DNA of 64,000 bases, taken from positions 177,273 to 241,272 of the forward strand of contig JAKFEW010000160.1 in NCBI GenBank assembly GCA_036675505.1, written 5' to 3'. This DNA comes from Candidatus Sericytochromatia bacterium. Its GTDB lineage: Bacteria; Cyanobacteriota; Sericytochromatia; S15B-MN24; JAQBPE01. The notes beneath the pieces are model-generated. The model searched no databases, had not been told where the DNA came from, and saw nothing but the letters and a program-made list of their open reading frames with translations. Positions 4,275 to 49,932 of the stretch are shown here, piece after piece; the first letter of the stretch is position 1, and the number at the start of each line of letters is the position of its first letter. Position numbers and translations under genes: made by a program.

Positions 4275-5561
4275 CTATTCCGGCTTCGCCGCCCCGATCT
4301 TTTCTACCCCGCCCATATAGGGCCTTAACGCCTCGGGCACGCGGATGGAGCCGTCCGCCTCCTGGTAGTTCTCGAAGATGGCCGCGACCGTGCGGCCCAC
4401 CGCCAGCCCCGAGCCGTTCAGGGTGTGCGGGAACGTGAGCTTGCCGTCCTTGTCGCGGAAGCGCATGTTGCCGCGCCGCGCCTGGAAGTCCGTGCAGTTC
4501 GAACAGCTCGAAATTTCGCGGTACTTGCCCTGCGACGGGAACCAGACCTCGAGGTCGTAGGTCTTCGCCGCGTTGAAGCCGGTGTCGCCCGAGCTGAGCA
4601 GCACCACCCGGTAAGGCAGGCCGAGGCGTCGAAGGATCGCCTCCGCGTTGCCGACCATCGTCTCGAGCTCGTCGAAGCTGCTCGCGGGCGGCACGATCTT
4701 CACCATCTCGACCTTGTCGAACTGGTGGACGCGGATCATGCCCTTGGTATCCTTGCCTGCGGCGCCCGCCTCCGAGCGGAAGCAGGGCGTGCCGGCCGTG
4801 AAGTACATCGGCAGCAGCGCCTCGTCGAAGATCTCGTCGCGGTAGATGTTGGTGAGCGGCACCTCGGCGGTGGGGATCAGGTAGTACTTGGTGTCCGCGA
4901 GGTGGAACAGCTGGTCCGCGAACTTGGGCAAATTGCCGTTCGCCGTGAGCGTCTCCTCGTTGGCGATGTAGGGCGGCTGAATTTCGGTGTAGCCGTGCTC
5001 GCCGGTGTGCATGTCCAACATGAGATTCAGGACCGCGCGCTCCATGCGGGCGGCCAGGCCCTTCATCAGCACGAAGCGCGAGCCGGCGAGCTTCGTGGCG
5101 CGCTCGAAGTCGAGCAGCCCGAGCGCCTCGCCGAGTTCGTGGTGGGGCCTGGCCACGAAGCCCTCGGGCTGCTTCGCCTCGCCCCAGGCGCGGACCTCGA
5201 CGTTGTCGCTCTCGTCCGTGCCGTCCGGGACGCCCGCGTCGAGGAGGTTGGGGATCGTCAGCATGAACTGCGAGCGCTGCGCCTCGATCGAGGCCTGGTC
5301 CGCTTCCAACGACTTGAGGTCGTCGCCCAGCCGCTTCATGTCCGTGAGGATCGCGGTCGCGTCCTGGCCCGATTTCTTGAGCTTCGCGATCTCCTGGGAG
5401 GCCGTGTTCCGCTCGGCGCGCAGCGCATCGAGCCGGGTCTGGGTTTCGCGGAAGCGCGTGTCGAGCGCCTGCAGCTCGCCGAGGTCGACGCCGCTGTGGC
5501 GACGGCGAAGGCTTTCGACGACCTTTTCGGGTTCCTGGCGGATGACGCGGATGTCGAGCAT
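4275..5561 (-). CDS. serS: seryl-tRNA synthetase
   Basis: N-terminal coiled-coil arm (MLDIRVIRQEPEKVVESLRRR...), class II aaRS motifs (FRSEAGAAGKDTKGMIRVHQFDKVEMV; GSGLAVGRTVAAIFENYQ). 428 aa. Confidence 0.95.
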   Translation of the reverse strand: MLDIRVIRQEPEKVVESLRRRHSGVDLGELQALDTRFRETQTRLDALRAERNTASQEIAKLKKSGQDATAILTDMKRLGDDLKSLEADQASIEAQRSQFMLTIPNLLDAGVPDGTDESDNVEVRAWGEAKQPEGFVARPHHELGEALGLLDFERATKLAGSRFVLMKGLAARMERAVLNLMLDMHTGEHGYTEIQPPYIANEETLTANGNLPKFADQLFHLADTKYYLIPTAEVPLTNIYRDEIFDEALLPMYFTAGTPCFRSEAGAAGKDTKGMIRVHQFDKVEMVKIVPPASSFDELETMVGNAEAILRRLGLPYRVVLLSSGDTGFNAAKTYDLEVWFPSQGKYREISSCSNCTDFQARRGNMRFRDKDGKLTFPHTLNGSGLAVGRTVAAIFENYQEADGSIRVPEALRPYMGGVEKIGAAKPE

Positions 5562-5687
5562 TGAATCCTCACTTGGTGTGCGTGAGCGGCATGATACCGC
5601 ACGAGGTTGCTGAAGCCGAGAGGCCGGGCCCCATAGGGACCCGGCGCCTCGGCTTGCGTTCAGGAGGAGGAGCGGAAAACTCGTCGC

Positions 5688-10611: not shown

Positions 10612-12462
10612 TTACATCCCCCACTGCAGCCACAGCCGGCGCACCTTGGCGGCCCGGCTGTCGCAGAACAGCAAGTTGCCGTCAGCCTCGAGCGTCAGCT
10701 CGTGCGGCTCGCTGAACGCCAGCGATCGCGCCTCACCATCGCCCGTGTACGTGCCGCCGCCCGCGATCGTGCGGATCGTCCCGTCCTTGAGCACGATCCG
10801 GATCCGCCGCGAGCCGCGCTCCGCGATGAACACGCGCCCATTCTTGTCCACCGTCACGCCGTACGGGCTGCTGAGCTGCGCCGAAACCGCCGGCCCGCCG
10901 TCGCCGTTGGTGCCCTCGGAACCATCCCCGGCCACCGTCGTGACGACCTCGGTCCGCGCGTCGTACTTGCGCACCCGGTGGTTGCGCGCGTCGGCGAAGA
11001 AAACGTTGTCCTGGCTATCGACGGCCACCTGGTTCACGTAGTTGATCTCGGTCTCGCGGCCCTTGCGGTTGTCGCCGTTGTAGCCGTGCTTGCCGTCCAC
11101 GCCCACCAGCGACGTGACGACCCCATCCCGATCCATGCGGCGAATGTGGTGCCAGGAGCCGCCGTCGTTGTCCCAGGTGTCGGCGAAGACGACGCCGCCG
11201 CGCGAGTCGAGCGCGAAGCCGCGCAGGCCGGCGAACTTGGCCTGCATGGCGGGCCCGCCGTCGCCTGCGAAGTCGTTGAGGAACGATCCGTTGGCCTGGG
11301 CCGGCGCGCCCGCGACGGTGGTGATCGTGCCGCTGACCAAGTTGACGCGGCGGATGCGCATGTTGAGCGTGTCGCCCACGTAGAGCTGGCCCCCCGCACC
11401 GATCGCGAGGCAGCGCGGCCACCAGAGGCCGGCGTCCTTGCCCGCGCCGCCGTCGCCGCTGAACTGCGGCACGCCCTTGCCGGCGAGCGTCGTGATCACG
11501 CCTTCGGAGTCGACCTTGCGGACCATGTGGTTGCCCTCGTCCGCGATGTAAAGGTTGCCGTCGGCGTCCTTCACGACGCTCTTGGGCTTGTAGAGCTGCG
11601 CGTCTTTCGCGGCCTTGCCGTTGCCGCCCAGCCCGCTCTCACCGTTGCCGGCCACCGTCGTCACGGCGAGCACGCGCGCGCCGAGCACGTCGGCCCACGC
11701 GTCGCCGAGCTTCTGCTTGTTGAGGCCCACCGCGAGGGCGTAGGCCTGGTTCATCTCGCCGATCTTGCCGATCGCGAGGTCCGGCACCGGCAGGTCGCCC
11801 TGGGCGAGCGCCGTCTCCGTGAGCTGTGTGAGCTTCGACAGGCCCGCGAGTTCGTAGTCCGCCATCGTCTTGCCGAGCCGCGCCGCGCGGTCGCGCAGGA
11901 ACTCCGTGACGTAGGTGGTGGCGAGGCTGACGTCCACGACGTTCTTGCCGCCCTTCGAGACCGTGAAGCCCACCTCGCGCCGGTTGTCGGCGAGGATCAC
12001 GTTCACGATCACCACCTCGCCGGTGGGCACGCCGCCCGGGAAGTCGTAGCGGCCCTTGTCGTCGGTGGTGGCGGTGAGCGGCTGGCCGTCGAACGCGTAG
12101 AACCGTTCGTCGGGGTCGGTGAGGTAGACGATCGCGTTGGCGATCGGCTTCTGGCTCACGGCAAGCGTGGCGTAGCGCGTCGAGTTGTTCGCCACGATGC
12201 TCGCGCCGTTGTGGCCGATGATGCGCCCGCTGTTGTTGGCGACGATGTTCGCGCCCACCACGCCGGCGGGGCCGATCGCCTGGCCGAGCACGCGGGCGGC
12301 GCCTGTGGCCTCGCGCAGCTTCGCGCGCTCGCGCTCGACCATGGCGGTGCGGTCGACGGAGGCGATGGACGTGGTGAAGACGTCCTTCGCGCTGCACGCC
12401 GCGAGGGCGGTCGAGAGCACGGACGCGGCGGCGACGAAAAGTAGGGGGCAGCGGACGGACAT
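10612..12462 (-). CDS. NHL-repeat (six-bladed beta-propeller) lipoprotein
   Basis: Start MSVRCPLLFVAAASVLSTALAAC. Repeated NHL-like blades (GNLYIADEGNHMVRKV; NVFFADARNHRVRKYD; RVFIAERGSRRIRIV). About 55% identical over long stretches to the 13513-15429 product. Confidence 0.8.
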   Translation of the reverse strand: MSVRCPLLFVAAASVLSTALAACSAKDVFTTSIASVDRTAMVERERAKLREATGAARVLGQAIGPAGVVGANIVANNSGRIIGHNGASIVANNSTRYATLAVSQKPIANAIVYLTDPDERFYAFDGQPLTATTDDKGRYDFPGGVPTGEVVIVNVILADNRREVGFTVSKGGKNVVDVSLATTYVTEFLRDRAARLGKTMADYELAGLSKLTQLTETALAQGDLPVPDLAIGKIGEMNQAYALAVGLNKQKLGDAWADVLGARVLAVTTVAGNGESGLGGNGKAAKDAQLYKPKSVVKDADGNLYIADEGNHMVRKVDSEGVITTLAGKGVPQFSGDGGAGKDAGLWWPRCLAIGAGGQLYVGDTLNMRIRRVNLVSGTITTVAGAPAQANGSFLNDFAGDGGPAMQAKFAGLRGFALDSRGGVVFADTWDNDGGSWHHIRRMDRDGVVTSLVGVDGKHGYNGDNRKGRETEINYVNQVAVDSQDNVFFADARNHRVRKYDARTEVVTTVAGDGSEGTNGDGGPAVSAQLSSPYGVTVDKNGRVFIAERGSRRIRIVLKDGTIRTIAGGGTYTGDGEARSLAFSEPHELTLEADGNLLFCDSRAAKVRRLWLQWGM

Positions 12463-12592
12463 GCCTTCCTTATACCACCGGCCACGGCGCGCCTTGTGTG
12501 ACGCCCATGCCGAGGAAGTATCGAACTCGCTTGATGTCGAAACGACCATTTCAGAATAACATCACAAAGCTCCGCCGCGAAAGGAGTCCGAG

Positions 12593-13512: not shown

Positions 13513-15429
13513 TTAGAAGCCCCACCTGAGCCACAGCCTCCGGACCTTGGCGCCCCGGCTGTCGGCCACCAGCAAGTTCCCGTCCGGCTCGCGCAGCAGC
13601 TCGATCGGCTCGTTCAGCGCCATCGCCCGCGCCTCGCCGTCGGTCGTCTTGTCGCCGCCGCCCGCCAGCGTGCGGATCTTCCCGTCCGGCCCCACCGCGC
13701 GGATGCGGCGCGCGCCGCGCTCGGCGATGAAGAGGGTCGGCGGCGTGGTCGACGGGTCGAGCTGGAGGCCGTAGGGGCTGCTCAGCTCCGCGGCCGTGGC
13801 CGGCCCGCCGTCGCCGGCCTTGCCGTCCTTGCCGGTGCCGGCCACCGTCGAGACCAGGCCCGTGGCGGCGTCCCAGCGGCGGATCCGGTGGTTGCGGGCG
13901 TCGGCGAAGAACAGGTTGCCGGCCGCGTCCAGCACGAGCTGGTTCACGAAGTTGACCTGCGTCTCGCGCCCGGGCTTGCCGTCGCCGTTGAAGCCGTGCG
14001 CCCCGTCCACGCCGACGATCGTGTCGATCGCGCCGCCGGGCCGGATGCGCCGGATGTGGTGCCAGCTGTTGCCGCCGGTGTCCCAGCAATCCGCCACGAA
14101 GAGCGTGCCGTCCGGCGCGAAGGCCAGGCCCCGGAGGCCGGCGAAGCGGGCCTGCGCGGCCGGGCCGCCGTCGCCCGCGAAGTCGTTGATCGCCACGCCG
14201 TTCACGACGCTCGGCGCGCCCGCGAAGGGGCCGATCAGGCCGGTGGCCGGGTCGAGCGTCCGGAGGCGCTGGTTGACGGTGTCCGCGAGGTAGAGGCGGC
14301 CGTCGGGGCCGAAGGCCGCGGTGCGGGGCCAGTTCAGGGCGGCGTTGGTGGCGAGCCCGCCGTCGCCGTCGAACGCGGCCCGCTCCACCGTGCCGGCCCA
14401 GCGCACGACGGTGCCGTCCGGGGCCACGCGCCGCACGGTGTGGGCGCCCTCGTCGGCGACGTAGAGGTTGCCGGCCGCGTCGCGCGCGAGCCCGATCGGC
14501 TTCATCAGCTCCGCCTCGGTCGCCGGGCCGCCGTCGCCCGTGGCACCGAAGTTGCCCGTGCCCGCCACGGTGGTCATCGCGAGCACGCGCTCGCCGAGCA
14601 TGGTCGCCCAGGCGTCGCCGAGGCCGCGCAGGTTCTGGCCGACGGCGAGCGCGTAGGCGTGGTTCATGTCCGGGATCCGGGCGATCGAGAGGTCCGGCAC
14701 CGGCAGGCCGCCCGACCGCAGCACCTGGGCCGTCAGGTCGGTGAGCGGGCCCAGCTGGGCCAGATCGTAGTCGCCCATCTTCTTGCCGGCGAGAGCCGCG
14801 CGGGCGCGCAGGAACTCCGTCACGTAGGTGGAGGCGAGGCTCACGTCCACCTTGTTCTCGCCGGCCCTGGTGCGCACGAAGCCCACCTCGCGCCGGTTGT
14901 CGGCGAGGATCACGTTCACGATCGCGACCTGGTCCACCGCGATGCCGTCCGGCACCTGGTAGCCGCCACGGTCGTCGGTGGTGGCGGCGATCGGCTGGCC
15001 GTCCTTGGCGAAGAAGCGCTCCTCGGGATCCGTGAGGTAGACGAGCGCGTTGGCGACCGCCTCCTCCTTGTAGGTCGCCTGGGCGACCTTGTACGAGGGC
15101 TGCGCGGCCTCGCACGACGCCGCGGCCAGGCCATAGCGAGACGTATTGCTCGACACGATGCCCGCGCCGTTCTGCCCGATCACGGCCGCGCTGTTGTTCG
15201 AGACGATGTTGCCGCCCACGAGGCCGCTCGGCCCGGTCGCCGTGCCGCTGATGCGCGCGGCGCCCGTGGCCTCCCGCAGGCCCTTGCCGGCGGTCGGCAC
15301 GAACCGCTGAGAGCGCCGCACCTCGCGGTCCGCGTTCGGCGTGGCCGGCGGCGTCCCGGGCGCGGGGGCGCAGGCCGCGAGGAGCAGGGCGGCGAGGGCG
15401 AGCGAAGAGCGGCGGGCGCGAGGCGGCAT
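13513..15429 (-). CDS. NHL-repeat beta-propeller lipoprotein (paralog of 10612-12462)
   Basis: MPPRARRSSLALAALLLAACAP signal/lipobox. Shares long identical blocks with the upstream paralog (ALVYLTDPEERF, VNVILADNRREVGF, SWHHIRR, FFADARNHRIRR). Confidence 0.8.
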   Translation of the reverse strand: MPPRARRSSLALAALLLAACAPAPGTPPATPNADREVRRSQRFVPTAGKGLREATGAARISGTATGPSGLVGGNIVSNNSAAVIGQNGAGIVSSNTSRYGLAAASCEAAQPSYKVAQATYKEEAVANALVYLTDPEERFFAKDGQPIAATTDDRGGYQVPDGIAVDQVAIVNVILADNRREVGFVRTRAGENKVDVSLASTYVTEFLRARAALAGKKMGDYDLAQLGPLTDLTAQVLRSGGLPVPDLSIARIPDMNHAYALAVGQNLRGLGDAWATMLGERVLAMTTVAGTGNFGATGDGGPATEAELMKPIGLARDAAGNLYVADEGAHTVRRVAPDGTVVRWAGTVERAAFDGDGGLATNAALNWPRTAAFGPDGRLYLADTVNQRLRTLDPATGLIGPFAGAPSVVNGVAINDFAGDGGPAAQARFAGLRGLAFAPDGTLFVADCWDTGGNSWHHIRRIRPGGAIDTIVGVDGAHGFNGDGKPGRETQVNFVNQLVLDAAGNLFFADARNHRIRRWDAATGLVSTVAGTGKDGKAGDGGPATAAELSSPYGLQLDPSTTPPTLFIAERGARRIRAVGPDGKIRTLAGGGDKTTDGEARAMALNEPIELLREPDGNLLVADSRGAKVRRLWLRWGF

Positions 15430-15542
15430 CGGGGTTCCCCTTCTGGACGCTCATCATACCCGCCGGGACGGCGTTTCCGCCTCCACGTGGCCCGTGGACC
15501 GAGCTTCGTTTATAATGGGCGCCCCGCCCCCCAGGAACCTAC

Positions 15543-16592
15543 ATGAACCTCGACCCCATCGCCTCCCGCCCCCCCGCGGACCTCGCCGGCCTTCCCGGCC
15601 GCGAGGCGGTCGTCGAGCGGCTGTTGGACGCGCTGCGCGGCGAGCACGCGCTGATCGTCCAGCTCATGAGCCACGGTTACCGGCTGCGCGACGAGGATGC
15701 GCTGCACGTCATCGAGGGCATCTCGCGCCAGGACATGCGGCACTTCAAGTGGCTGGCCGAGACCGTCGTCCGCCTCGGCGGCACGCCGACGCTTGCGCGC
15801 GGCCCGGTGGCGCTCGAGCCCGCGGCGCCCCATGTGTGGCTCGCGGCGGACGTCGCGCTGATCGAGACGCGGATGGCGGCCTACAGCGAGTTGCTCGACA
15901 GCATCGACGGCCTGACCGGCGAAGAGCCTGCGCTGGAGGTGCGCCAGCTGATCGAGCGCATCCTGGGCGACAAGATCTACCACCGCGAGAAGGTCCTCGC
16001 GCTCGCCGCGGCCTGGGAAAGCCGCGAGCACCCGGAGCCCGCGCCCATAGTACATGACGAGGTTGACGACGCCACGCGCGGTTTCCTCGATTTCGCGATC
16101 GGCCACGAGTACGAGGTGATCCTCCAGTACCTCCACCATGCGTTCCTGCTCGAGGACCAGTGGGCCTCGCGCGTGCTCGAGGACGTCGCGATCGAGGAGA
16201 TGCGGCACCTCGGCTGGCTCACGGAGGCGCTCGTCGACCGCGGCGGCTGCCCGTATTGGGAGGCCCGGCGGCTCGAGCTGAACGACGACGCCGTGCGCAT
16301 GCTCGAGCTCGACCAGCAGCGCGAGATCGAGGTCGAGGCGGACTACGCCCAGATGACCGCCGCGATGGCGGATTCCGAGATCCGCCGCCTGTTCGATCGG
16401 ATCGGCGACCACGAGCGTTTCCATGCCGGCACACTCGGCCGCCTGATCACCCGCCTCAAGTCCACTTCAGTCGCTTCGCCCATCGACCTCACGAGCGAGA
16501 TCTCAGATCCCGCTTCGCACGGTACTTTGCCATCCCCGCCGAAATCCTGCCCCTACACCGTGGGCAGCCTTTTCGGCCAATCGCAATCCTGA
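15543..16592 (+). CDS. encapsulin cargo: tandem ferritin-like (rubrerythrin/Bfr-like diiron) protein with C-terminal targeting peptide
   Basis: Two internally repeated ferritin-like halves carrying Glu/His metal-ligand motifs (GEHALIVQLMSH...VIEGISRQDMRHFKWLAE // EYEVILQYLHH...VAIEEMRHLGWLTE...DHERFHAG). C-terminus ...CPYTVGSLFGQSQS matches the TVGSL-type encapsulin targeting peptide. Located directly upstream of the shell gene. Confidence 0.7.
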   Translation: MNLDPIASRPPADLAGLPGREAVVERLLDALRGEHALIVQLMSHGYRLRDEDALHVIEGISRQDMRHFKWLAETVVRLGGTPTLARGPVALEPAAPHVWLAADVALIETRMAAYSELLDSIDGLTGEEPALEVRQLIERILGDKIYHREKVLALAAAWESREHPEPAPIVHDEVDDATRGFLDFAIGHEYEVILQYLHHAFLLEDQWASRVLEDVAIEEMRHLGWLTEALVDRGGCPYWEARRLELNDDAVRMLELDQQREIEVEADYAQMTAAMADSEIRRLFDRIGDHERFHAGTLGRLITRLKSTSVASPIDLTSEISDPASHGTLPSPPKSCPYTVGSLFGQSQS

Positions 16593-16624
16593 ATCCCGCG
16601 TAGACCCGCCACCAGGAGGACCCC

Positions 16625-17485
16625 ATGTACGACTTCCTCGACCGCAGCAACGCCCCCCTTCGCGAAGAGGAGTGGCGCCAGATCGACACCCTGGTGGTGG
16701 AGGTGGCGCGCCGCCAGCTGGTCGGGCGCCGCTTCATCCCGGTCTTCGGCCCGCTGGGTGCCGGCACCCAGGACGTCGACTACGACGTCTTCACCGGCAC
16801 CGATGCGGCCGTCGTCAGCACGCTGGGCGAGTCCACCGATCCGGTCCGCGCGAAGCGGCGCGTGCACGAGCACATGCCGTTGGTGTTCAAGGATTTCATG
16901 CTCTACTGGCGCGACCTCGAGTCGAACCGCCTGATGGGCACGCCGGTCGACCTCGGCGCGGCGGCCGCGGCGGCTTCCTTCTGCGCGCAGAAAGAAGACG
17001 ACCTGATCTTCAACGGCCACGAAGATCTCGGCTACCCCGGCCTCACCACCGTCGAAGGCCGTCAGATCCTCCAGGCCAGCGACTGGGACGTGGCCGGCAA
17101 TGCGTTCAACGACATCGTCGCGTCCACCCGCATGCTGATCAACGAGGGCTTCTTCGGGCCCTTCGCCCTGGTCGTGAGCCCCAAGGCCTTCAGCCAGATG
17201 CAGCGCGTTTACGCGAACTCCGGCGTGCTCGAAATCAACCACGTGCGCGAGATCGCGACGGGCGGCGTCTATCAATCCCCGCTGCTGCGCGACAAGCTCG
17301 GCTTCGTGGTGTCGATGGGCATCCAGAACTTCGACATCGCGATCGGCCAGGACCTCATCACGGCTTACCTCGGCCCCGAGAAGATGAACCACCCCTTCCG
17401 CGTGATGGAGAGCCTGGTGCTCCGCATCAAGCGCCCCGGCGCGATCGTCTCGCTCGAGCAGCCCGTCGCCACGCGCAAGCGCTAG
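16625..17485 (+). CDS. family 1 encapsulin nanocompartment shell protein (Linocin M18 / HK97-fold)
   Basis: N-terminus MYDFLDRSNAPLREEEWRQIDTLVVEVARRQLVGRRFIPVFGPLGAGTQDV is the canonical family-1 encapsulin signature. 286 aa, typical size. RBS AGGAGGA upstream. Confidence 0.85.
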   Translation: MYDFLDRSNAPLREEEWRQIDTLVVEVARRQLVGRRFIPVFGPLGAGTQDVDYDVFTGTDAAVVSTLGESTDPVRAKRRVHEHMPLVFKDFMLYWRDLESNRLMGTPVDLGAAAAAASFCAQKEDDLIFNGHEDLGYPGLTTVEGRQILQASDWDVAGNAFNDIVASTRMLINEGFFGPFALVVSPKAFSQMQRVYANSGVLEINHVREIATGGVYQSPLLRDKLGFVVSMGIQNFDIAIGQDLITAYLGPEKMNHPFRVMESLVLRIKRPGAIVSLEQPVATRKR

Positions 17486-20756: not shown

Positions 20757-21986
20757 ATGTCCGTCCGCCACGTCCTCGGGACCGCCCTCGCCGCCGCCAC
20801 CCTGCTGGCCGGCTGCGGCGTGGTTCCGTCCGCCGGGCCCCGCACGACGATCGTCGGCGACATGGGCGCGAGCGCCATCCCCGGCGAGATCCTGGTCGGC
20901 CTCAAGGCGGGCCGCTCGAAGCAGGCGATGGCCGGCCTGACCCAGAAGCTCGGCCTGCGCACGGTCGGCTCGATCGGCGCGCTGGGCATCCACGTGGTGA
21001 CGACCGGCACCGGCACCGCCAAGGCGCTCGAGGAGCTGCGCAAGCAGCCCGACGTGGCCTTCGCCGAGCCCAACGCCCGCGAGGTGCTGCCGCCTATGAA
21101 GAAGGAAGGCCCCGTGCGCAAGGGCGGCGCGCCCAGCCGCGGCGGCGACCCGATGCTCGGCGACCAGTGGGGCATGGCGACGATCCACGCGACCGAGGCC
21201 TGGGCGGCGACGGCCGGCGACCCGAAGACGGTCCTCGCGATCGTCGACACCGGCATCGACTACAACCACCCCGAGTTCGCGGGCCGCATGGTCCCGGGCC
21301 ACGACTTCGCGAACGACGACAGCGATCCGATGGACGGCCACTCGCACGGCACGCACTGCGCGGGCATCGCGGCGGCCTCGGCCAACAACGGCCACGGCGG
21401 CGCCGGCGTCGCGCCGAACGTCTCGCTGATGGCGGTCAAGGTCCTCTCGGACCAGGGCTCGGGCTCCACCGACGACGTCTGCGCGGGCATCGTCTGGGCG
21501 GCCGACCACGGCGCGCACGTGATCTCGATGAGCCTCGGCGGCACGGGCGGCCAGCAAGCCAAGCAAGCGGCGGTCGACTACGCTCGCTCGAAGGGCGCCG
21601 TGGTGGTCGTCGCGATGGGCAACAACGGCGGCAACGTCGCGGTCTACCCGGGCGCCAACAAGGGCGTGATCGCGGTTGGCGCGACCACCCTCGAGGAGAC
21701 CCGCGCCTCGTTCTCGAACTTCGGCGACTGGATCGGCGTGAGCGCCCCCGGCCACAAGATCCTCTCGACGGTGCCCAACAACGGCTACCAGGCCTATTCG
21801 GGCACCTCGATGGCGACGCCCTTCGTCGCCGGCCTCGCGTCGCTGATCCGCAGCCAGGACCCGTCGCTCGACGCCGAGGCGGTGCGGGCCCGGATCGAGA
21901 AGGGCAGCGTCGACCTGGGCAAGGCCGGCTTCGACCCAGAGTTCGGTCACGGCCGCATCGACGCCGCTGCCGCGCTCAAGCGGTAA
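20757..21986 (+). CDS. subtilisin-like serine peptidase (S8 family) lipoprotein
   Basis: Catalytic triad motifs DTGIDYNHPEF (Asp), HGTHCAGIAAA (His), GTSMATPFVAG (Ser). Signal/lipobox LLAGCG. Confidence 0.9.
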   Translation: MSVRHVLGTALAAATLLAGCGVVPSAGPRTTIVGDMGASAIPGEILVGLKAGRSKQAMAGLTQKLGLRTVGSIGALGIHVVTTGTGTAKALEELRKQPDVAFAEPNAREVLPPMKKEGPVRKGGAPSRGGDPMLGDQWGMATIHATEAWAATAGDPKTVLAIVDTGIDYNHPEFAGRMVPGHDFANDDSDPMDGHSHGTHCAGIAAASANNGHGGAGVAPNVSLMAVKVLSDQGSGSTDDVCAGIVWAADHGAHVISMSLGGTGGQQAKQAAVDYARSKGAVVVVAMGNNGGNVAVYPGANKGVIAVGATTLEETRASFSNFGDWIGVSAPGHKILSTVPNNGYQAYSGTSMATPFVAGLASLIRSQDPSLDAEAVRARIEKGSVDLGKAGFDPEFGHGRIDAAAALKR

Positions 21987-21993
21987 ACAGCCG

Positions 21994-22605
21994 GTGAGCG
22001 ACGTCTCGCAGCCCGGCTACTGGGACGTCAAATACCGCGAGGCCGCCCCCCCACCGTGGGATCTGGGGCGGCCTTCGCCCGTGCTGACCGCCTGGCTGGC
22101 CGCGCACCCGGGCATCCGGGGACGCGCGCTCGTGCCGGGCGCCGGGAGCGGCCACGACGCGGTGGCCCTGGCGCAGGCGGGGCTCGACGTGGTGGCGGTG
22201 GACTTCGCGCCGGGGGCGATCGCCGCCATTCAGGCGCTTTCGGCGGCCGCGGGGGTCCGGCTCGAGGCCGTGGAAGGCGACGCGCTGGCCCCACCGCCCG
22301 TCTGGGATGGCACCTTCGACTGGATCTTCGAGCACACCTGCTTCTGCGCGATCGACCCGGCGCGCCGCGACGACTACGTCGCCACCATGGCACGCCTGCT
22401 GCGCCCCGGCGGGCGGCTGGTGGGCGTGTTCTTCACCCACGGCGACGTCGGTGGGCCCCCCTTCGACACCTCGGCGGCGGAGCTCCGCGAGCGGTTCGGC
22501 GGCGCGTTCGAGATCGAGACCTTGGCACAGGCGGCGGAGTCCGTGCCGCACCGGGCGGGTGAAGAGCACGTCGGAGTGTTTCGGCGACGGGTGGCGTTGG
22601 CGTAG
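21994..22605 (+). CDS. thiopurine S-methyltransferase (TPMT)-family SAM-dependent methyltransferase
   Basis: YWDVKYRE..PPWDLGRPSPVL...GRALVPGAGSGHDAVALAQAGLDVVAVDFAPGAI matches the TPMT N-terminal signature and SAM-binding motif I. Confidence 0.75.
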   Translation: MSDVSQPGYWDVKYREAAPPPWDLGRPSPVLTAWLAAHPGIRGRALVPGAGSGHDAVALAQAGLDVVAVDFAPGAIAAIQALSAAAGVRLEAVEGDALAPPPVWDGTFDWIFEHTCFCAIDPARRDDYVATMARLLRPGGRLVGVFFTHGDVGGPPFDTSAAELRERFGGAFEIETLAQAAESVPHRAGEEHVGVFRRRVALA

Positions 22606-38686: not shown

Positions 38687-40207
38687 CTACTTGTATTCCG
38701 CGCGGTAGATGCCCGCCTTCGGCGAGGTGTGGGTGTAGTAGAAGCTGTTGCCGTCCGGCATCAGCACGAGGCCCTCGTCGCCGATGAAGTTGCCGTTGAT
38801 GCTCGTGTGGGCGATGACCTTCGCGCCGACGTCCGGGATGATCGCGTACAGGTCCGAGGCGACGGCGTCGCCCGCGATGTAGCTCGTCGCGAAGAGGATA
38901 TCGCCGGCCGCATCGACGTCGATCGCGCTCGGGCCCGGGACTCCCGTCAGCAGGGTCGTGACGTCGCCGCCGGACGAGACCTTGCGGATCGCGCCGCTGT
39001 CGCTCGATTCGGTGAAGATCAGGTTGCCCTGGCCGTCGATGCAGATGCCCTCGGGGAGAATCAACGACGCGGCGCTCCCGCGCCCATCCAGGCGGTTCGC
39101 ACGACCATTGCCGGCGAGCGTCGTCCAGACGCCGTCGGGGGTGCGCTTGCGGATCGCGTGGTTGCGCTTGTCGGCGACGTACAGGTTGCCGGTCGAGTCA
39201 TAGACGAGGCCCCACGGCTCGTTGAACTTCGAGGCCTGGAAGTCGCCGTCCGCGAAGCCCGCCTCCGCGGAGTCGCCCCCGATGGTCGAGACCGTCTTGT
39301 TCGTGAAGTCGAGCAACCGGATCGCATGGTTCCCGGTGTCGGCGACGGCCACATGGCTGCCGTCCGGCGCGAGGGCGATGCCATGCGGCCGTTTGAAGCG
39401 CGCCTCCGCGAAGGTGCCGTCCTGGGCCCCGTAGCCGCCCGTGAACGAGCCCACGTAGCCGCCTTCGTCGTCATAGAAGTACCGGACCTCGTCTTTGTCG
39501 GTGAAGAGGAACATCTTGCCGCTCCCCGCCCAGCACAGGCCACCAGGCGCCACGACGGCGTTGTTGCCGCGCTTCCCGTCGAACGTGTCGACCCGGCCGT
39601 ACAGCAGCATCTCGGTCGGCCAGTCGTAGCCGCTGCCGGCGACGAGCGACGAGATCAGGGTCTTGATCGGCGCAGGCGTCGGCGGCGGCGGGGGCGGCGG
39701 GACGATCGTGGCCACGGGCCGCGGCGTTTCGGCGGGCGGCACCACGGCCGAGGGCGCGGTCTGCGGAATGAAATCGCCCCCCTGGCCGGGCGGGGGCGTC
39801 GGCACCGGCGTGCGCGCCGCCTTGGGCCTCGTGGGCCGGCGCCTGCGCGTCGCCCCCTCGGAAATCCCGCCGGCGCCGGCGGCCGGAAGCTCCGTGACCT
39901 CCTCGCCGGTCAGCTCGGCCAGGCCTTCGGCGCTGACGCCCGAGTTCAGGCCTTCGAGGGCGGCCGTCTGCGATTTGACCTTGGCGGCGTCAGCCTCACC
40001 GGCCAGGAGCGCGTCCACGCTCGACTCGCTGATGCTGCCCTTCGCGTTGAGGCTGGCGACGCCGCCGGCCCCGCCCGCGCCCGCGGGACCGCCGGGGCCG
40101 CCCGGCACCGCGTTCGGACCCGTGAGCGGGCCGTCAGGCACGATCACGCAGGCGCTGAGGCCGGCCAGCGCGGACATCAAGCCGAGGGAAAAAAGGCGCT
40201 TCTTCAT
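38687..40207 (-). CDS. NHL-repeat beta-propeller lipoprotein (third copy, divergent)
   Basis: MKKRLFSLGLMSALAGLSAC lipobox, PPPPPPTPAP linker. NHL blades (GNHAIRLLDF; GNLYVADKRNHAIRKRT; GNLIFTESSDSGAIRKV). Confidence 0.75.
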   Translation of the reverse strand: MKKRLFSLGLMSALAGLSACVIVPDGPLTGPNAVPGGPGGPAGAGGAGGVASLNAKGSISESSVDALLAGEADAAKVKSQTAALEGLNSGVSAEGLAELTGEEVTELPAAGAGGISEGATRRRRPTRPKAARTPVPTPPPGQGGDFIPQTAPSAVVPPAETPRPVATIVPPPPPPPTPAPIKTLISSLVAGSGYDWPTEMLLYGRVDTFDGKRGNNAVVAPGGLCWAGSGKMFLFTDKDEVRYFYDDEGGYVGSFTGGYGAQDGTFAEARFKRPHGIALAPDGSHVAVADTGNHAIRLLDFTNKTVSTIGGDSAEAGFADGDFQASKFNEPWGLVYDSTGNLYVADKRNHAIRKRTPDGVWTTLAGNGRANRLDGRGSAASLILPEGICIDGQGNLIFTESSDSGAIRKVSSGGDVTTLLTGVPGPSAIDVDAAGDILFATSYIAGDAVASDLYAIIPDVGAKVIAHTSINGNFIGDEGLVLMPDGNSFYYTHTSPKAGIYRAEYK

Positions 40208-40293
40208 GCAAGGCTCCTGGGTGGCGACGGCGCGGCAGGCGCCTGAGAGTGCGAGGCGAGAATTTCGACGAACGAGCGAGCAAGCTGGTTCCG

Positions 40294-41322
40294 TTAGCCC
40301 GCCGAAAGGTCAGGCCGTCTCGATGTACCCGGCCAGGCCGGGTTGGCCAGCACCGCGCGCCCCACCGCCAGGAAATCCACAGCGCCGAGCGCCTCGCGGG
40401 CGTAGTCCAGCGACACGACCCCGCCCACGCCGATCACCGGCAGGCCGCTCGCGCGCCTGAGCGCCGCCGCGTCGGCGACCAGGTAGCCCTCGCCGCGCTG
40501 GCCGTGCTGGCGCCGCCAGCCGCCCAGCCCGCTCGAGACGTCGAGCACGTCGACGCCGCGCGCGGCGGCCTCGCGGGCGAGCCAGGCGGTGTCGGCGAGC
40601 GTCAGCCCGCCCGGCAGCCGGTCCTGGCCCGGGAAGCGCAGCGAGAGGATGGTCGTGGGGCGCAGCACCGCGCGCAGGCGCACGATCAGGTCGAGCAGCA
40701 GGCGTGCGCGGGCGGCCAGCGAGCCGCCGTGCGCGTCCTCGCGCACGTTGGTGATCGGCGAGAGCCATTGGTTGAAGAAGTAGCCGTGCGCCGCGTGGAT
40801 CTCGATCGCCACGAACCCCGCCGCCTCCGCGCGCACGGCGGCCGCGACGAAGGCCTCCGTGAGCTCGGCGAGCTCCACGTCCGTCATGGCCGCGGGCGCC
40901 GGCAGGTCGCCGCCGTGCGCCGGGATCGGCCGCGCGCTCGCGCCGAGCGGCGTCCGCCCGATCAGCGCGGCTTCCGTCTTGCCGCCCGCGTGGGTGAGCT
41001 GGATGCCGGGCAGCGCGCCAGCGGCACGGATCGTGGCCGCGAGCGCGGCGAGGCCCGCCGCATGCGCGGGGCCCGACGCACCGAGCTGGCGCGCCTCGGA
41101 CCTGCCCCAGGGATGGACGTGGCTGTACTCGACGAACGCCAGGCCGTGGCGCTCGCCGACGATCCGCCGGTAGTGCGCGAGCGTCTCGGCGGTGACGCGG
41201 CCCTCGGCGTCGGCCGTGCCGGAGGCCATCGGCGGCAGCACCAGGCGCGAGCGCAGGCGGTGGGCGCCGAGCCGGCCGGGCGCGAACAGCGGGTGCAGGG
41301 CCGGGCGATCGAGCAGTTCCAT
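40294..41322 (-). CDS. NADH:flavin oxidoreductase, Old Yellow Enzyme family
   Basis: MELLDRPAL start with AAGGAG RBS. OYE motifs (RLVLPPMAS, GIQLTHAGGK, FVAIEIHAAHGYFFNQWLSP). Confidence 0.85.
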   Translation of the reverse strand: MELLDRPALHPLFAPGRLGAHRLRSRLVLPPMASGTADAEGRVTAETLAHYRRIVGERHGLAFVEYSHVHPWGRSEARQLGASGPAHAAGLAALAATIRAAGALPGIQLTHAGGKTEAALIGRTPLGASARPIPAHGGDLPAPAAMTDVELAELTEAFVAAAVRAEAAGFVAIEIHAAHGYFFNQWLSPITNVREDAHGGSLAARARLLLDLIVRLRAVLRPTTILSLRFPGQDRLPGGLTLADTAWLAREAAARGVDVLDVSSGLGGWRRQHGQRGEGYLVADAAALRRASGLPVIGVGGVVSLDYAREALGAVDFLAVGRAVLANPAWPGTSRRPDLSAG

Positions 41323-44484: not shown

Positions 44485-44874
44485 TTGACTCGCATTCTCC
44501 GGAACACGTTCTCGGCCGCCCTTCTGACCTCGGCCGCGATCATGCTGGCAGGTTGCCCTGCGGGCACGGGCGCCGTCATCCCCGGCGCGACCGGCGTCGG
44601 CGGCACCACCGCCACCACCCCCGGCGGCACCACCACGACGCCCACCACGGGCGCCGCGGCCTGCACCCGCAACGCAGCCACCGGCACGCCGGCTGAAGGC
44701 ACGTCGGTTCACGGTAAGTACAACAAGCAGCTCCTGCCCGACGGCTGGGCCACCGCCCACAAGTCCGAGGCGGACGTGACTGCGGCGATCGCCAAGCTCG
44801 AGGCCGGTATCGCGGCCGACTGGAACTGCTTCCAGAAGTTCTACGGCGGCGCTTACACGCAGTACAAGAAGTAG
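44485..44874 (+). CDS. small Cys-containing lipoprotein (paralog 1)
   Basis: TTG start with AGGAGGA RBS, SAAIMLAGCP lipobox. Conserved C-terminal block HGKYNKQLLPDGW...WNCFQKFYGG. Confidence 0.6.
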   Translation: MTRILRNTFSAALLTSAAIMLAGCPAGTGAVIPGATGVGGTTATTPGGTTTTPTTGAAACTRNAATGTPAEGTSVHGKYNKQLLPDGWATAHKSEADVTAAIAKLEAGIAADWNCFQKFYGGAYTQYKK

Positions 44875-44942: not shown

Positions 44943-45344
44943 ATGATGAAGTTTGCCCGTTACGCCGCTGCAGTTGCTTCGGTTGCGTTCCTCGCCGGCT
45001 GTCCCGGCGGCGCCGGCCTGCCCGGCGTGACCACGCCCGGTAGCAGCGCGATGCCCGGCACGTCCGTCAAGGGCCCCGACGCGGCGCTCGCCGCGCAGTG
45101 CGCCGCGGCCTCGCCGGCTGCCGCCACCACCACCGGCGCTGCGAAGCACGGCAAGTACAGCGGCATGACCCTGCCCAACGGCTGGGACAACCTCGACAGC
45201 GAAGCCAAGGTCACCGAGTCGATCGACAAGTTCGTCGCCGAGAACGCGACCGGCGCGGCCGACAAGGTCAACCAGTGGAACTGCTTCAACAAGTTCTACG
45301 GCGGCACGCTGACCGTGTACTACCAGATCAAGGGCATCAAGTAA
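44943..45344 (+). CDS. small Cys-containing lipoprotein (paralog 2)
   Basis: AVASVAFLAGCPGG lipobox. Conserved HGKYSGMTLPNGW...WNCFNKFYGG block shared with the upstream gene. Confidence 0.65.
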   Translation: MMKFARYAAAVASVAFLAGCPGGAGLPGVTTPGSSAMPGTSVKGPDAALAAQCAAASPAAATTTGAAKHGKYSGMTLPNGWDNLDSEAKVTESIDKFVAENATGAADKVNQWNCFNKFYGGTLTVYYQIKGIK

Positions 45345-47727: not shown

Positions 47728-48954
47728 ATGCCCGACCGATCGATCCAGGCGACGCCTTCCACCCCTGCAGCCGGCACGCCCCCCGCGCGCGTCGCGGCAA
47801 GCCCGCTCGCGCCCACAGGCCAGGCCATCGCCGCGGATCGCTTGACGCTGGGCGACCGCCCGCCCGCGATCGAGGCCGACGTTCGCCTCGCGATGCACGG
47901 GCGCCCGGCGCTCGAGGCCGCGGGCACGGTGCGCGTGCGGCGCGGCTTCCTGGAGCGGTTCATCAAGCACGTGCTCGCCAACAAGCGCGTCTTCCCGCGC
48001 ATGGCGATCGGCTTCGATCCTGCCGCGAAGCGCTTCACCAGCGAGGGCACGGTGCGCTGGTGCGGCATCCCGGTGCCTGTGGCGATCGCTGCCCGTCCGC
48101 TGGTCGTGGACAACCAGCTCGGCGTGCAGTTCGAGGCGCCGAAGCTCATGCTCGGTGGCTGGCGGATCGAGGTGCCCTTCCTCACCGCGCTCGCGACCGG
48201 CGCGGTGCTCAAGGAGCTTGCCAAGACGCAGCTGGTGGCGAAGAAAGGCGATCGGGCCGGCCTGGTGCTGCTCGAGCCGACCTCGATCATCCGCGAGCTG
48301 GGCATCGTCCCGTCCTTCGTGACGCTCGACATGACCCGCACGCAGCTTGCGGTCGCGCTCGCCGAGACCGGCGACCTCACCCTCGGCCTGAGCGCCACCG
48401 GCGTGCCGGACGCGCCCCCCGCCACGCCGCGCTCCGACATCGCGCTCTCGATCGACGAGGCGGCGCTCCAGGCGGTGATGCGCCAGGCGCTCGCGCCCGA
48501 CTACGAGCTCGGCGGCCTCGCCATGCGCGCAAACGGCGCCGCCGTGACCGGCAAGGCGGACCTCAAGCCGCTCAGCGACACGCTCACGGTGGCGAAGGGC
48601 ATCTTGCTCCTCGTCGCCATCGCGGGCCGCGGCGGCCAATCGGCGCGCGGCTTGAACGACGCGCCCATCGTCGTGATGGGCAAGCTCGATCTCGACGTGA
48701 AGGTCGAGGGCCGCACGATGACGATCACGCCGAGCCTCGGGCCAGCCGCCAGCGAGATCGCGAAGCTGTTCGAGAAGGCCGGCATCCCCGCGCAGAAGGT
48801 CGCAGGCGGCGTGCGCGTCGATCTCGACGCGGCGGCCCGCGCCCGCGGCGCCACGCTCGCGCAGCTGCGCGTCGACGCGCAGGGCGTGAGCCTGCAGGCC
48901 GGCGTCGACCTCGAGTCGCTGCTCCGCAACCCGCGGCTGCGCGAAGGCGGCTAG
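47728..48954 (+). CDS. hypothetical protein
   Basis: 408-aa ORF with realistic composition (K/F/I/E present). Antisense ORFs here are Arg/Ala junk. Start uncertain. Confidence 0.55.
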   Translation: MPDRSIQATPSTPAAGTPPARVAASPLAPTGQAIAADRLTLGDRPPAIEADVRLAMHGRPALEAAGTVRVRRGFLERFIKHVLANKRVFPRMAIGFDPAAKRFTSEGTVRWCGIPVPVAIAARPLVVDNQLGVQFEAPKLMLGGWRIEVPFLTALATGAVLKELAKTQLVAKKGDRAGLVLLEPTSIIRELGIVPSFVTLDMTRTQLAVALAETGDLTLGLSATGVPDAPPATPRSDIALSIDEAALQAVMRQALAPDYELGGLAMRANGAAVTGKADLKPLSDTLTVAKGILLLVAIAGRGGQSARGLNDAPIVVMGKLDLDVKVEGRTMTITPSLGPAASEIAKLFEKAGIPAQKVAGGVRVDLDAAARARGATLAQLRVDAQGVSLQAGVDLESLLRNPRLREGG

Positions 48955-49808
48955 GGCTTCGGCGTCTGCATCCCCTTCGGCTTCCACTGCGCGCCTGCGA
49001 TGTCGCGACGCACGTCCAGGACGTGGCTGGGTAGCACCGGCGTCTTCACCCCGCCGAACTCGCGCCGGGCGTAGGTCAGCAGCGCCGCGATCTCATCGTC
49101 CGTCAGAATCTTCTTGAAAGGCCCCATCGAGCCCATGTAGGTGCGCCCGGCGAGCGGACGGCCGCCGAGGCCCTCCAGCGTGACCCAGATCGCAGGCCAC
49201 GCGTCCTTGGACTTCATCATCGGATCGTTCTCGAGCGGCGGGAAGTGGTTCGCCATCCCCTGGCCGGCGTCGCCGTGGCAGGCCGCGCAGTGTTGCTTGT
49301 AGAGCCGGGGGCCCTTGGCCTCCCCGTCGGCATCGCTCACCACCACCGCGAAGCCCTTTTCTTTCCATTCGCGGATGCCGCCTTTCAGCACCAGCAGATT
49401 GGTGAAGCCGTGTTCATCGTGAAGCCTGCGCGCCGCACCGGCGCTGCTGTGCTCGTCCGGTCAAGCACAGTAGAGGACGATCGGCTTGCCTTTCGGCAAG
49501 GTGCCCTTCTGCTTGTCGATGTCGGCCCAGGGCAAGCTCTTCGCGCCCTTGATGTGCTCCTTCTCGTACGCCGTGAGTGAGCGCACGTCGGCCACGTACA
49601 TCGCCTCATGGGCTGCGAGGCGGGCGTTGAGGTCCGCCGTCGAGATCGTGGTCGGCTCCCACGGGGCGACGCTCATGACCGGCAGCGGCGCGGGGCTCGT
49701 GATCGGCGCCGGGACGTAGGGCGAGGGCCCGGCGGCCTGATCGCGGGGACCTGTATCACAGCCAGGCAGGGCGACGAGCGCGAGGACGAGGCAAGCAATC
49801 GGGCGCAT
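48951..49808 (-). CDS. rhodanese-domain / mono-heme cytochrome c fusion lipoprotein, interrupted by one in-frame TGA (49461-49463)
   Basis: One frame encodes lipobox LVALPGCD, then a rhodanese domain (...KGKPIVLYCA-TGA-PDEHSSAGAARRLHDEHGFTNLLVLKGGIREWKEKGF), then a cytochrome c domain (CAACHGD...M). The track splits it into 49461-49904 and 48951-49391. Confidence 0.55.
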
Positions 49809-49932
49809 GCGGGAGGTACCTCCGGAAGGTCGTTCGACGGCCCCCATGCTGCGCCGCGGCGGGGCAGCGGTCAAGTGCGCGGGTGACCAGCCGGGCGGGT
49901 ACAAAAAGAGCCGATCGAAAGAGGATGCGCCG

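Follow-up and report, generated by a model that had tools for sequence, protein, structure and literature searches.

Rhodaneses in which selenocysteine (Sec) stands two residues after the catalytic Cys have been described as selenoproteins. In the selenoproteome catalogue of a 2026 review, rhodanese selenoproteins come in five forms; form 3 carries the CxU motif, and another form is the rhodanese/DsbD fusion TsoB. In that catalogue, the entry for CxU rhodaneses consists of a family name and a motif only, some c-type cytochromes are listed as selenoproteins, and no cytochrome c fusion appears (PMC13188914). Here, we analyzed a stretch of 64,000 nucleotides from contig JAKFEW010000160.1 of a Candidatus Sericytochromatia bacterium (the whole stretch is hereafter called the window), in which a minus-strand frame for a signal peptide, a rhodanese domain and a class I c-type cytochrome is interrupted by a single in-frame TGA. 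Comparison with homologs led us to conclude that this UGA, at codon 116, is very probably a recoded Sec codon. At the level of the compared sequences, the UGA is conserved, is under selection, is paired with Cys in homologs and is followed by a predicted hairpin of the selenocysteine insertion sequence (SECIS) type. An earlier reading of the window, made from its letters alone (the sequence-only reading), had stated that rhodanese-like selenoproteins and CxU redox motifs are known, and the LYCAU/CxU family is indeed already catalogued (NF041203; PMC13188914). The family is therefore known already, and the cytochrome c fusion is the new part. A literature search for rhodanese-cytochrome c fusions returned nothing relevant.

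The TGA is the sole internal stop in the rhodanese-cytochrome c frame (Table 1), and it lies in the context ...KPIVLYC(114)-A-[TGA]-PDEHSSAGAARRL..., or in longer form ...KPIVLYC-A-[TGA]-PDEHSSAGAARRLHDEHGFTNLLVLKGGIREWKEKGF..., with the coordinates and motif that the sequence-only reading had described. Pfam was run on the full protein with Cys put in at codon 116. The first domain matches the rhodanese hidden Markov model (HMM) and has a Cys at the canonical catalytic position; in an alignment with PDB 1yt8, C114 matches the Cys of its CAGRTRS loop. The active-site loop, C-A-U-P-D-E-H-S, is two residues longer than the classical loop and contains no Arg, and the six-residue sulfurtransferase loop of the CRxGx[R/T] type is absent from the window protein. 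The second domain has all the attributes of a c-type cytochrome, namely, an HMM match, a CxxCH heme motif (CAACH, residues 174-178, 49275-49289, minus strand) and a distal Met (Met228, 49125-49127, minus strand), which is invariant across nine homologs and is the likely sixth ligand of the heme. In the AlphaFold model of a Cys homolog (predicted local distance difference test score 82.7, predicted template modeling score 0.71), a single-domain rhodanese is followed by a class I cytochrome c. Foldseek matched the first part of this model to the small single-domain rhodaneses 6mxv, 3nhv and 3gk5, and the second part to Thermus c552 and to the cytochrome c domain tethered in the heme-Cu nitrite reductase of Ralstonia pickettii. 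None of the solved structures holds a rhodanese and a cytochrome c in one protein.

The sequence-only reading had assigned a lipoprotein signal, a rhodanese and a mono-heme cytochrome c to one frame. The signal peptide and, by Pfam, both domains were borne out, whereas the window protein is probably, but not certainly, a lipoprotein, because Pro occupies position -2 of its lipobox and because no lipobox Cys is present in the homologous loci L007 and L008. The lipobox of the window protein and of L002 reads L-P-G-C, which is atypical compared with [LVI][ASTVI][GAS]C. Canonical lipoboxes were found in L005, P0001, P0003 and P0004, and the equivalent Cys is also present in L002. Unlike the window protein, L007:10001-10870 and L008:10001-10789 have ordinary signal peptides without the lipobox Cys; therefore, membrane anchoring is not conserved.

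Homologs of the full-length protein are scarce in protein collections. A word-indexed protein search with the full protein returned one match, P0001, and did not even pick up the fragments of the window itself. With P0001 as the query, a profile search run exhaustively over 1.84 billion representative proteins recovered the full-length Cys-form fusions P0001, P0003, P0004, P0005 and P0045 (motif YC[AT]CP[DT][ED]H), the N-terminal fragments P0071 and P0147, which end exactly in ...IVLYCA, and the C-terminal fragment P0008, which starts with ...LQGGIREW. In the DNA behind these fragments, the gene calls halt at the TGA, and the frame runs on through PDEHSSAG..., the remainder of the rhodanese and a complete cytochrome c. 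Fusions of this kind formed only a handful of clusters among the representative proteins, in agreement with the earlier remark that the architecture is unusual. P0001, the closest full-length homolog (49% identity end to end), reads LYCA-C-PDEHS and has TGC at the position of the TGA; a TGC Cys codon stands at position 116 in L001 and L088. Further homologous loci came from scanning metagenome and genome collections: L087 and the genome contigs L007 and L008.

Altogether, at least seven fusion lineages have TGA at codon 116 (the window, L002/3, L004/5, L006, L087, L007 and L008; also L103/4), and the amino-acid identity of these Sec-form lineages to the window protein is 54-64%. L002 keeps the gene order of the window, yet its DNA identity over a 7.4-kb syntenic stretch is only 79%. 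At least nine standalone rhodaneses also have TGA at the equivalent codon. The invariant columns of the alignment are Y113, C114, position 116, C174, C177, H178 and M228. The sequence-only reading had proposed aligning orthologs at this position, and the alignment gave either TGC or TGA at codon 116, the classic Cys/Sec pair in which an in-frame UGA faces a conserved Cys; homologs with the UGA were found elsewhere with coding kept on both sides of it. TGA is an ordinary stop in 9 of the 25 Pfam-supported open reading frames (ORFs) of the window, and therefore there is no genome-wide reassignment. Ratios of nonsynonymous to synonymous substitution (Nei-Gojobori) upstream and downstream of the TGA ranged from 0.2 to 0.9; they are uninformative because a GC content of ~0.9 at third codon positions (GC3) compresses synonymous divergence, and they were not used as evidence.

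Directly 3' of the UGA, a hairpin is predicted whose core stem-loop, GCGCC-GGUGC-GGCGC, occupies 49444..49430 on the minus strand. The sequence-only reading had placed it about 16 nt past the UGA, and the distance is exactly 16 nt. The stem has 5-6 bp, and the apical loop starts 21-22 nt after the UGA. The published consensus model for bacterial SECIS (bSECIS) elements (bSECISearch) specifies a loop of 3-9 nt, a stem of 4-16 bp, a spacing of 16-37 nt and an energy of -7.5 kcal/mol or lower, with a G in the first two loop positions, G followed by G or U, and a closing N1-N2 pair, giving the pattern N1-G-[G|U]-N-N2 (PMC13188914). The window hairpin lies within all of these limits, and its loop GGUGC fits the loop pattern.

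The RNA sequence of this region appears to be maintained beyond what the protein requires. The window, L002, L005, L007 and L008 agree in all 33 nt that follow the TGA (CCGGACGAGCACAGCAGCGCCGGTGCGGCGC), and L006 and L087 each differ from them at one base. In a codon alignment of seven lineages, third-position identity is the highest of the gene in the 11 codons from the UGA (0.974, compared with a gene mean of 0.539). Among columns with an invariant amino acid, one codon is used in all seven lineages in 8 of 9 cases within the 10 codons after the UGA and in 18 of 72 cases elsewhere (Fisher p = 3e-4). The conserved codons are rare in the window: GGT accounts for 4.9% of Gly, TGT for 7% of Cys, GCT for 1.9% of Ala and CTT for 2.4% of Leu codons. 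The hairpin is common to all Sec forms and is weaker or absent in the Cys forms L001 (-4.7 kcal/mol) and L088 (-6.3 kcal/mol); L088 encodes the same peptide, PDEHSSAGAA, with GCG-GGC where the Sec forms have GCC-GGT. The stem GCGCC/GGCGC also follows the TGA in at least nine standalone CxU rhodaneses, with the loops GGUG, GGUU, CGUG or CGGG, and the contigs that carry these standalone Sec forms are labelled Anaerolineae, Chloroflexota, Ardenticatenia, Chloroflexia or Deltaproteobacteria, the others being unlabelled metagenome. The peptide SSA[G/R]AA appears to be fixed by the hairpin. We consider this SECIS unusually well defined: the same stem recurs in several phyla and is imprinted on the protein as SSA[G/R]AA, which provides a search handle for more members. 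A second predicted hairpin encloses the UGA. The window, L002, L006 and L087 have it, whereas L005, L007, L008 and the standalone rhodaneses do not; it might serve as a lower helix of the SECIS or as a context element, or be incidental.

Table 1. Coordinates of the recoded gene, its protein and RNA features, and standalone relatives; positions without a locus prefix are those of the window
Feature	Position	Strand	Details
Recoded coding sequence, complete	48951..49808	minus	ATG at 49808 to TAG at 48951-48953; 285 sense codons + stop
UGA codon 116, very probably read as Sec	49461..49463	minus	two residues past the canonical rhodanese Cys114, giving the CxU motif
Signal peptide MRPIACLVLALVALPGC	49758..49808	minus	lipobox-like L-P-G-C, Cys17; read directly from sequence
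Rhodanese domain, residues 57-151	49356..49640	minus	Pfam PF00581, 55.4 bits (cutoff 22.2)
Class I c-type cytochrome domain, residues 164-246	49071..49319	minus	PF00034, 48.4 bits; PF13442, 37.8 bits
SECIS hairpin GC-A-GCGCC(G)-GUG-(C)GGCGC-GC	49428..49447	minus	predicted, -13.0 kcal/mol
Second hairpin CUGUGCUUG-ACCGGA-CGAGCACAG	49447..49470	minus	predicted; encloses the UGA; built from rare TGT and GCT codons
Standalone CxU rhodaneses with in-frame TGA	L009:6603, L010:10181, L018:2391, L078:5726, L084:10181, L094:4998, L097:4428, L099:2162		plus one family variant

Overall, we favor the explanation that the locus is one intact selenoprotein gene, decoded by Sec read-through with the help of a downstream SECIS, and we regard this as highly likely. 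Among the three explanations that the sequence-only reading had listed, it is the best backed, by the conserved TGA, the Cys/Sec pair and a hairpin within the bSECIS limits. Several observations nevertheless weigh against it. The best NCBIfam match of the protein is NF041203, 'rhodanese_LYCAU, rhodanese-related (seleno)protein', to which the full protein scores 74.6 bits and its rhodanese part by itself 76.2 bits, both short of the 115 bits set as the curated cutoff. Covariation in the stem is weak because the stem is nearly invariant: two pairs have double changes (C-G to U-A in L097; G-C, C-G and U-A at the base), a level that 6-24 of 500 shuffles also reach. What supports the hairpin is thus the conservation of synonymous sites and the lack of such a hairpin in Cys forms rather than covariation. 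The folding suggested in the sequence-only reading succeeded in part: a stable local hairpin was predicted, whereas the whole 73-nt region folds no better than shuffled sequence (z = 0.79), a value that is not significant because GC-rich shuffles fold equally well. The nucleotide conservation also coincides in part with the conserved peptide PDEHSSAGAA. With respect to machinery, tRNA and Rfam scans and gene inspection revealed no tRNA and no selA, selB or selD in the 64-kb window, and tblastn with Escherichia coli SelA, SelB and SelD found no homologs in 1.39 Mb of fetched loci, which is expected for a random sample and is not evidence of absence. Finally, neither the Sec-form nor the Cys-form copies have sulfur-oxidation genes or conserved operon partners nearby, so the context gives no functional hint. 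The Rfam scan of the window yielded no match, so the hairpin has no Rfam family, and no further copies of the hairpin sequence occur in the window. A seryl-tRNA synthetase gene is located at 4278-5687 (minus strand); this enzyme charges tRNA(Sec) but is universal, and its presence therefore says nothing about Sec use.

The rival explanation that survives best, and that we still consider improbable, is that the UGA is recoded to a residue other than Sec, either through SelB/SECIS-dependent insertion of Cys from a tRNA(Sec)-like tRNA that accepts Cys, or through near-cognate decoding as Trp or Cys. Such recoding variants have been described in the literature, the hairpin and the TGA point to recoding without identifying the inserted residue, and the lack of Sec machinery in the window and the fetched loci is compatible with it. 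However, plain read-through would neither need nor keep a SECIS-type hairpin that fits the SelB-binding model, and Cys insertion would give no advantage over the TGC of close relatives. Moreover, the family with the exact LYCAU motif is curated as a selenoprotein family.

A pseudogene, in which a recent nonsense mutation converted TGC to TGA in a Cys-form fusion gene, is very unlikely. The change would take a single base, Cys-form homologs exist and gene callers take the TGA as a stop; the sequence-only reading had included this option. It fails on the distribution of the codon, which is kept in at least seven lineages at 54-64% identity and in at least nine standalone relatives. The 169 codons after the TGA are as conserved as the upstream part and contain no frameshift or stop in any lineage, the frame is intact through the cytochrome c domain with CxxCH and Met228 invariant, and the synonymous sites past the TGA are frozen into the hairpin.

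We give just as little credence to two separate genes, that is, a 115-residue rhodanese fragment ending at the TGA and a 146-residue cytochrome c starting from the GTG at 49391. That GTG is present, and automatic gene calls on L103:4419-5276, L104:1626-2483, L002:3548-4429 and L005:116-988 split the Sec form in this way, into a 'rhodanese' of 115-126 residues and a 'cytochrome c' of 140-153 residues. The split would, however, fall inside the rhodanese fold and remove the rest of the active-site loop, the next helix and the last strand, and conserved rhodanese residues are encoded, in the same frame, by the 69 nt that separate the TGA from the called start. The Cys-form homologs are single uninterrupted ORFs, which upholds the earlier statement that these are not two genes. 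In addition, c-type cytochromes need export to the periplasm for heme attachment, and, taken by itself, the cytochrome c part lacks a signal peptide; therefore, the periplasm is accessible only to the full read-through product. A sequencing or assembly error with a sense codon such as TGC, CGA or GGA as the true codon, the remaining option of the sequence-only reading and a general possibility for any metagenome-derived sequence, can be dismissed as the least probable of all, since contigs from the independent run assemblies SRR17380409 (10.9 kb) and SRR17380414 (2.7 kb), reached by an exact-protein look-up with the downstream ORF, are 100% identical to the window with the TGA included, and the ortholog TGA is also carried by independent ENA, JGI and Logan assemblies and by metagenome-assembled genomes (MAGs) in GenBank.

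When the UGA is read as Sec, at least seven lineages regain a complete, exported protein of two domains, and a systematic misannotation is corrected. No full-length Sec-form protein was found in the protein collections searched, and every public gene call found splits it. The proteins have no public names, save one Cys form called 'rhodanese-related sulfurtransferase'. L007 and L008 are MAG contigs (JAYKHL01 and JAYKHR01) deposited as 'Candidatus Sericytochromatia bacterium', a label that is the depositors' own. Many genes of the window (GC ~70%) are 55-78% identical to those of L007 and L008 (72-73% GC), in broadly the same order, and the source organism of the window is therefore related to those of the two MAGs. 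Sericytochromatia are non-photosynthetic relatives of Cyanobacteria, and if the lineage label holds, Sec use would be documented in relatives of Cyanobacteria; a full-text search for Sericytochromatia together with selenocysteine found no paper.

On the basis of the established bacterial Sec pathway and of the domain content, we propose the following putative mechanism. SelB carrying Sec-tRNA(Sec) would bind the hairpin and insert selenocysteine at the UGA; a shortage of selenium or of the machinery would make translation halt at this codon and leave a useless 115-residue fragment. The 285-residue precursor would be exported by its N-terminal signal peptide and probably be lipid-anchored at Cys17, and heme would be attached to C174/C177 in the periplasm. 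In the extended loop, Cys114 and Sec116 may form a redox center that cycles between thiol/selenol and selenenylsulfide, or that carries sulfane sulfur. This center might exchange electrons with the tethered heme c and, from there, with periplasmic respiratory carriers. The fusion to heme c strongly hints at periplasmic electron-transfer chemistry of the Cys/Sec pair rather than simple persulfide shuttling, and it provides a concrete functional lead for CxU rhodaneses; the specific mechanism, a Cys/Sec center wired to the heme, is a tentative proposal that we hold with less than even confidence. More speculatively still, and on balance doubtful, the protein might represent an unrecognized type of periplasmic selenoenzyme, in which a rhodanese Cys-x-Sec site is hard-wired to a c-type heme and couples the redox chemistry of thiols, sulfane sulfur or selenium and metalloids to the respiratory chain.

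The gene is monocistronic, with a divergent DUF5939 gene on one side and a convergent gene of unknown function on the other. Just upstream of its start codon, a perfect 12-nt palindrome, GGAGGTACCTCC, at 49812-49823 (minus strand) includes a Shine-Dalgarno-like GGAGG. A scan of the window, L007 and L008 for in-frame TGA codons required 40 flanking codons that were free of stops and high in GC3. The only extra candidate in the window, at 44709-44711 (minus strand), was rejected because it is antisense to a plus-strand lipoprotein gene; the same scan also listed 12493-12495 (minus strand) of L007. That lipoprotein gene is the first of two adjacent paralogs on the plus strand, at 44485-44874 and 44943-45344, which encode small lipoproteins (129 and 133 residues); each has an LAGC lipobox, their C-terminal halves are similar, and neither protein has a Pfam family. 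An ORF at 21847-22602 (plus strand) has a thiopurine S-methyltransferase family domain (PF05724, 102.8 bits), and bacterial homologs of this enzyme methylate selenium and tellurium compounds. At 15516-17482 (plus strand), a gene for a ferritin-like/rubrerythrin-domain protein, probably the cargo, is followed directly by an encapsulin shell gene (Linocin_M18, 242.6 bits). Three large NHL or teneurin-NHL repeat proteins are encoded within 30 kb on the minus strand, at 10615-12561, 13516-15450 and 38690-40309.

Compared with known systems, the window protein is closest to NF041203, with which it shares the identical L-Y-C-A-U motif, Sec at +2 from the rhodanese Cys, a PDEHSSAG-type sequence next to it and the existence of Cys-form homologs. 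In contrast to the NF041203 model, which describes a single domain of 126 residues, the window protein has a C-terminal cytochrome c and a signal peptide with a lipobox-like motif; the match spans profile positions 20-123 only, and after it comes a cytochrome c region of 130 residues. NF041203 is also the best-scoring family for the standalone Sec forms L094, L097 and L099, whose scores of 73-93 bits are again below the cutoff. As judged from its sequence, the window protein is a diverged relative of a known selenoprotein family with a new domain architecture, and it is not an NF041203 member by the NCBI threshold. The SECIS resembles that of the E. coli fdhF type in that a hairpin within the coding region lies directly 3' of the UGA and has a small apical loop with G and then U first. 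However, the two sequences are unrelated, the window hairpin is a putative SelB-binding site, and the second hairpin enclosing the UGA is found in some lineages only. GlpE and PspE (PF00581) have the same fold and the catalytic Cys in the same place past the central beta-strand, and PspE is periplasmic too, but their active site is a six-residue CxxGxR/S cradle, in contrast to CAUPDEHS with a second chalcogen at +2. Because the loop here is longer, lacks Arg and holds that second chalcogen, persulfide-transfer chemistry cannot simply be assumed.

Two further known systems include a domain joined to an electron-transfer module. TsoB (NF045694, rhodanese form 5) differs from the window protein in its UxxxxU motif with two Sec residues, its DsbD-like membrane thiol-disulfide relay and its lack of a heme domain, and the window protein does not belong to the TsoB family because its match to NF045694 is weak, far under the cutoff (22.4 compared with 805 bits); TsoB is nevertheless a rhodanese-domain selenoprotein fused to an electron-transfer module, a precedent for a rhodanese Sec center connected to a redox relay. 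In the three-domain heme-Cu nitrite reductase of R. pickettii (PDB 3ziy and related entries), the catalytic partner is a cupredoxin nitrite reductase instead of a rhodanese, and the protein has no Sec. Its cytochrome c is, however, the closest solved relative of the window cytochrome by both sequence (E = 5.6e-10) and fold, and, like that of the window protein, it is a mono-heme domain attached C-terminally to a catalytic domain, as an electron carrier within the same protein.

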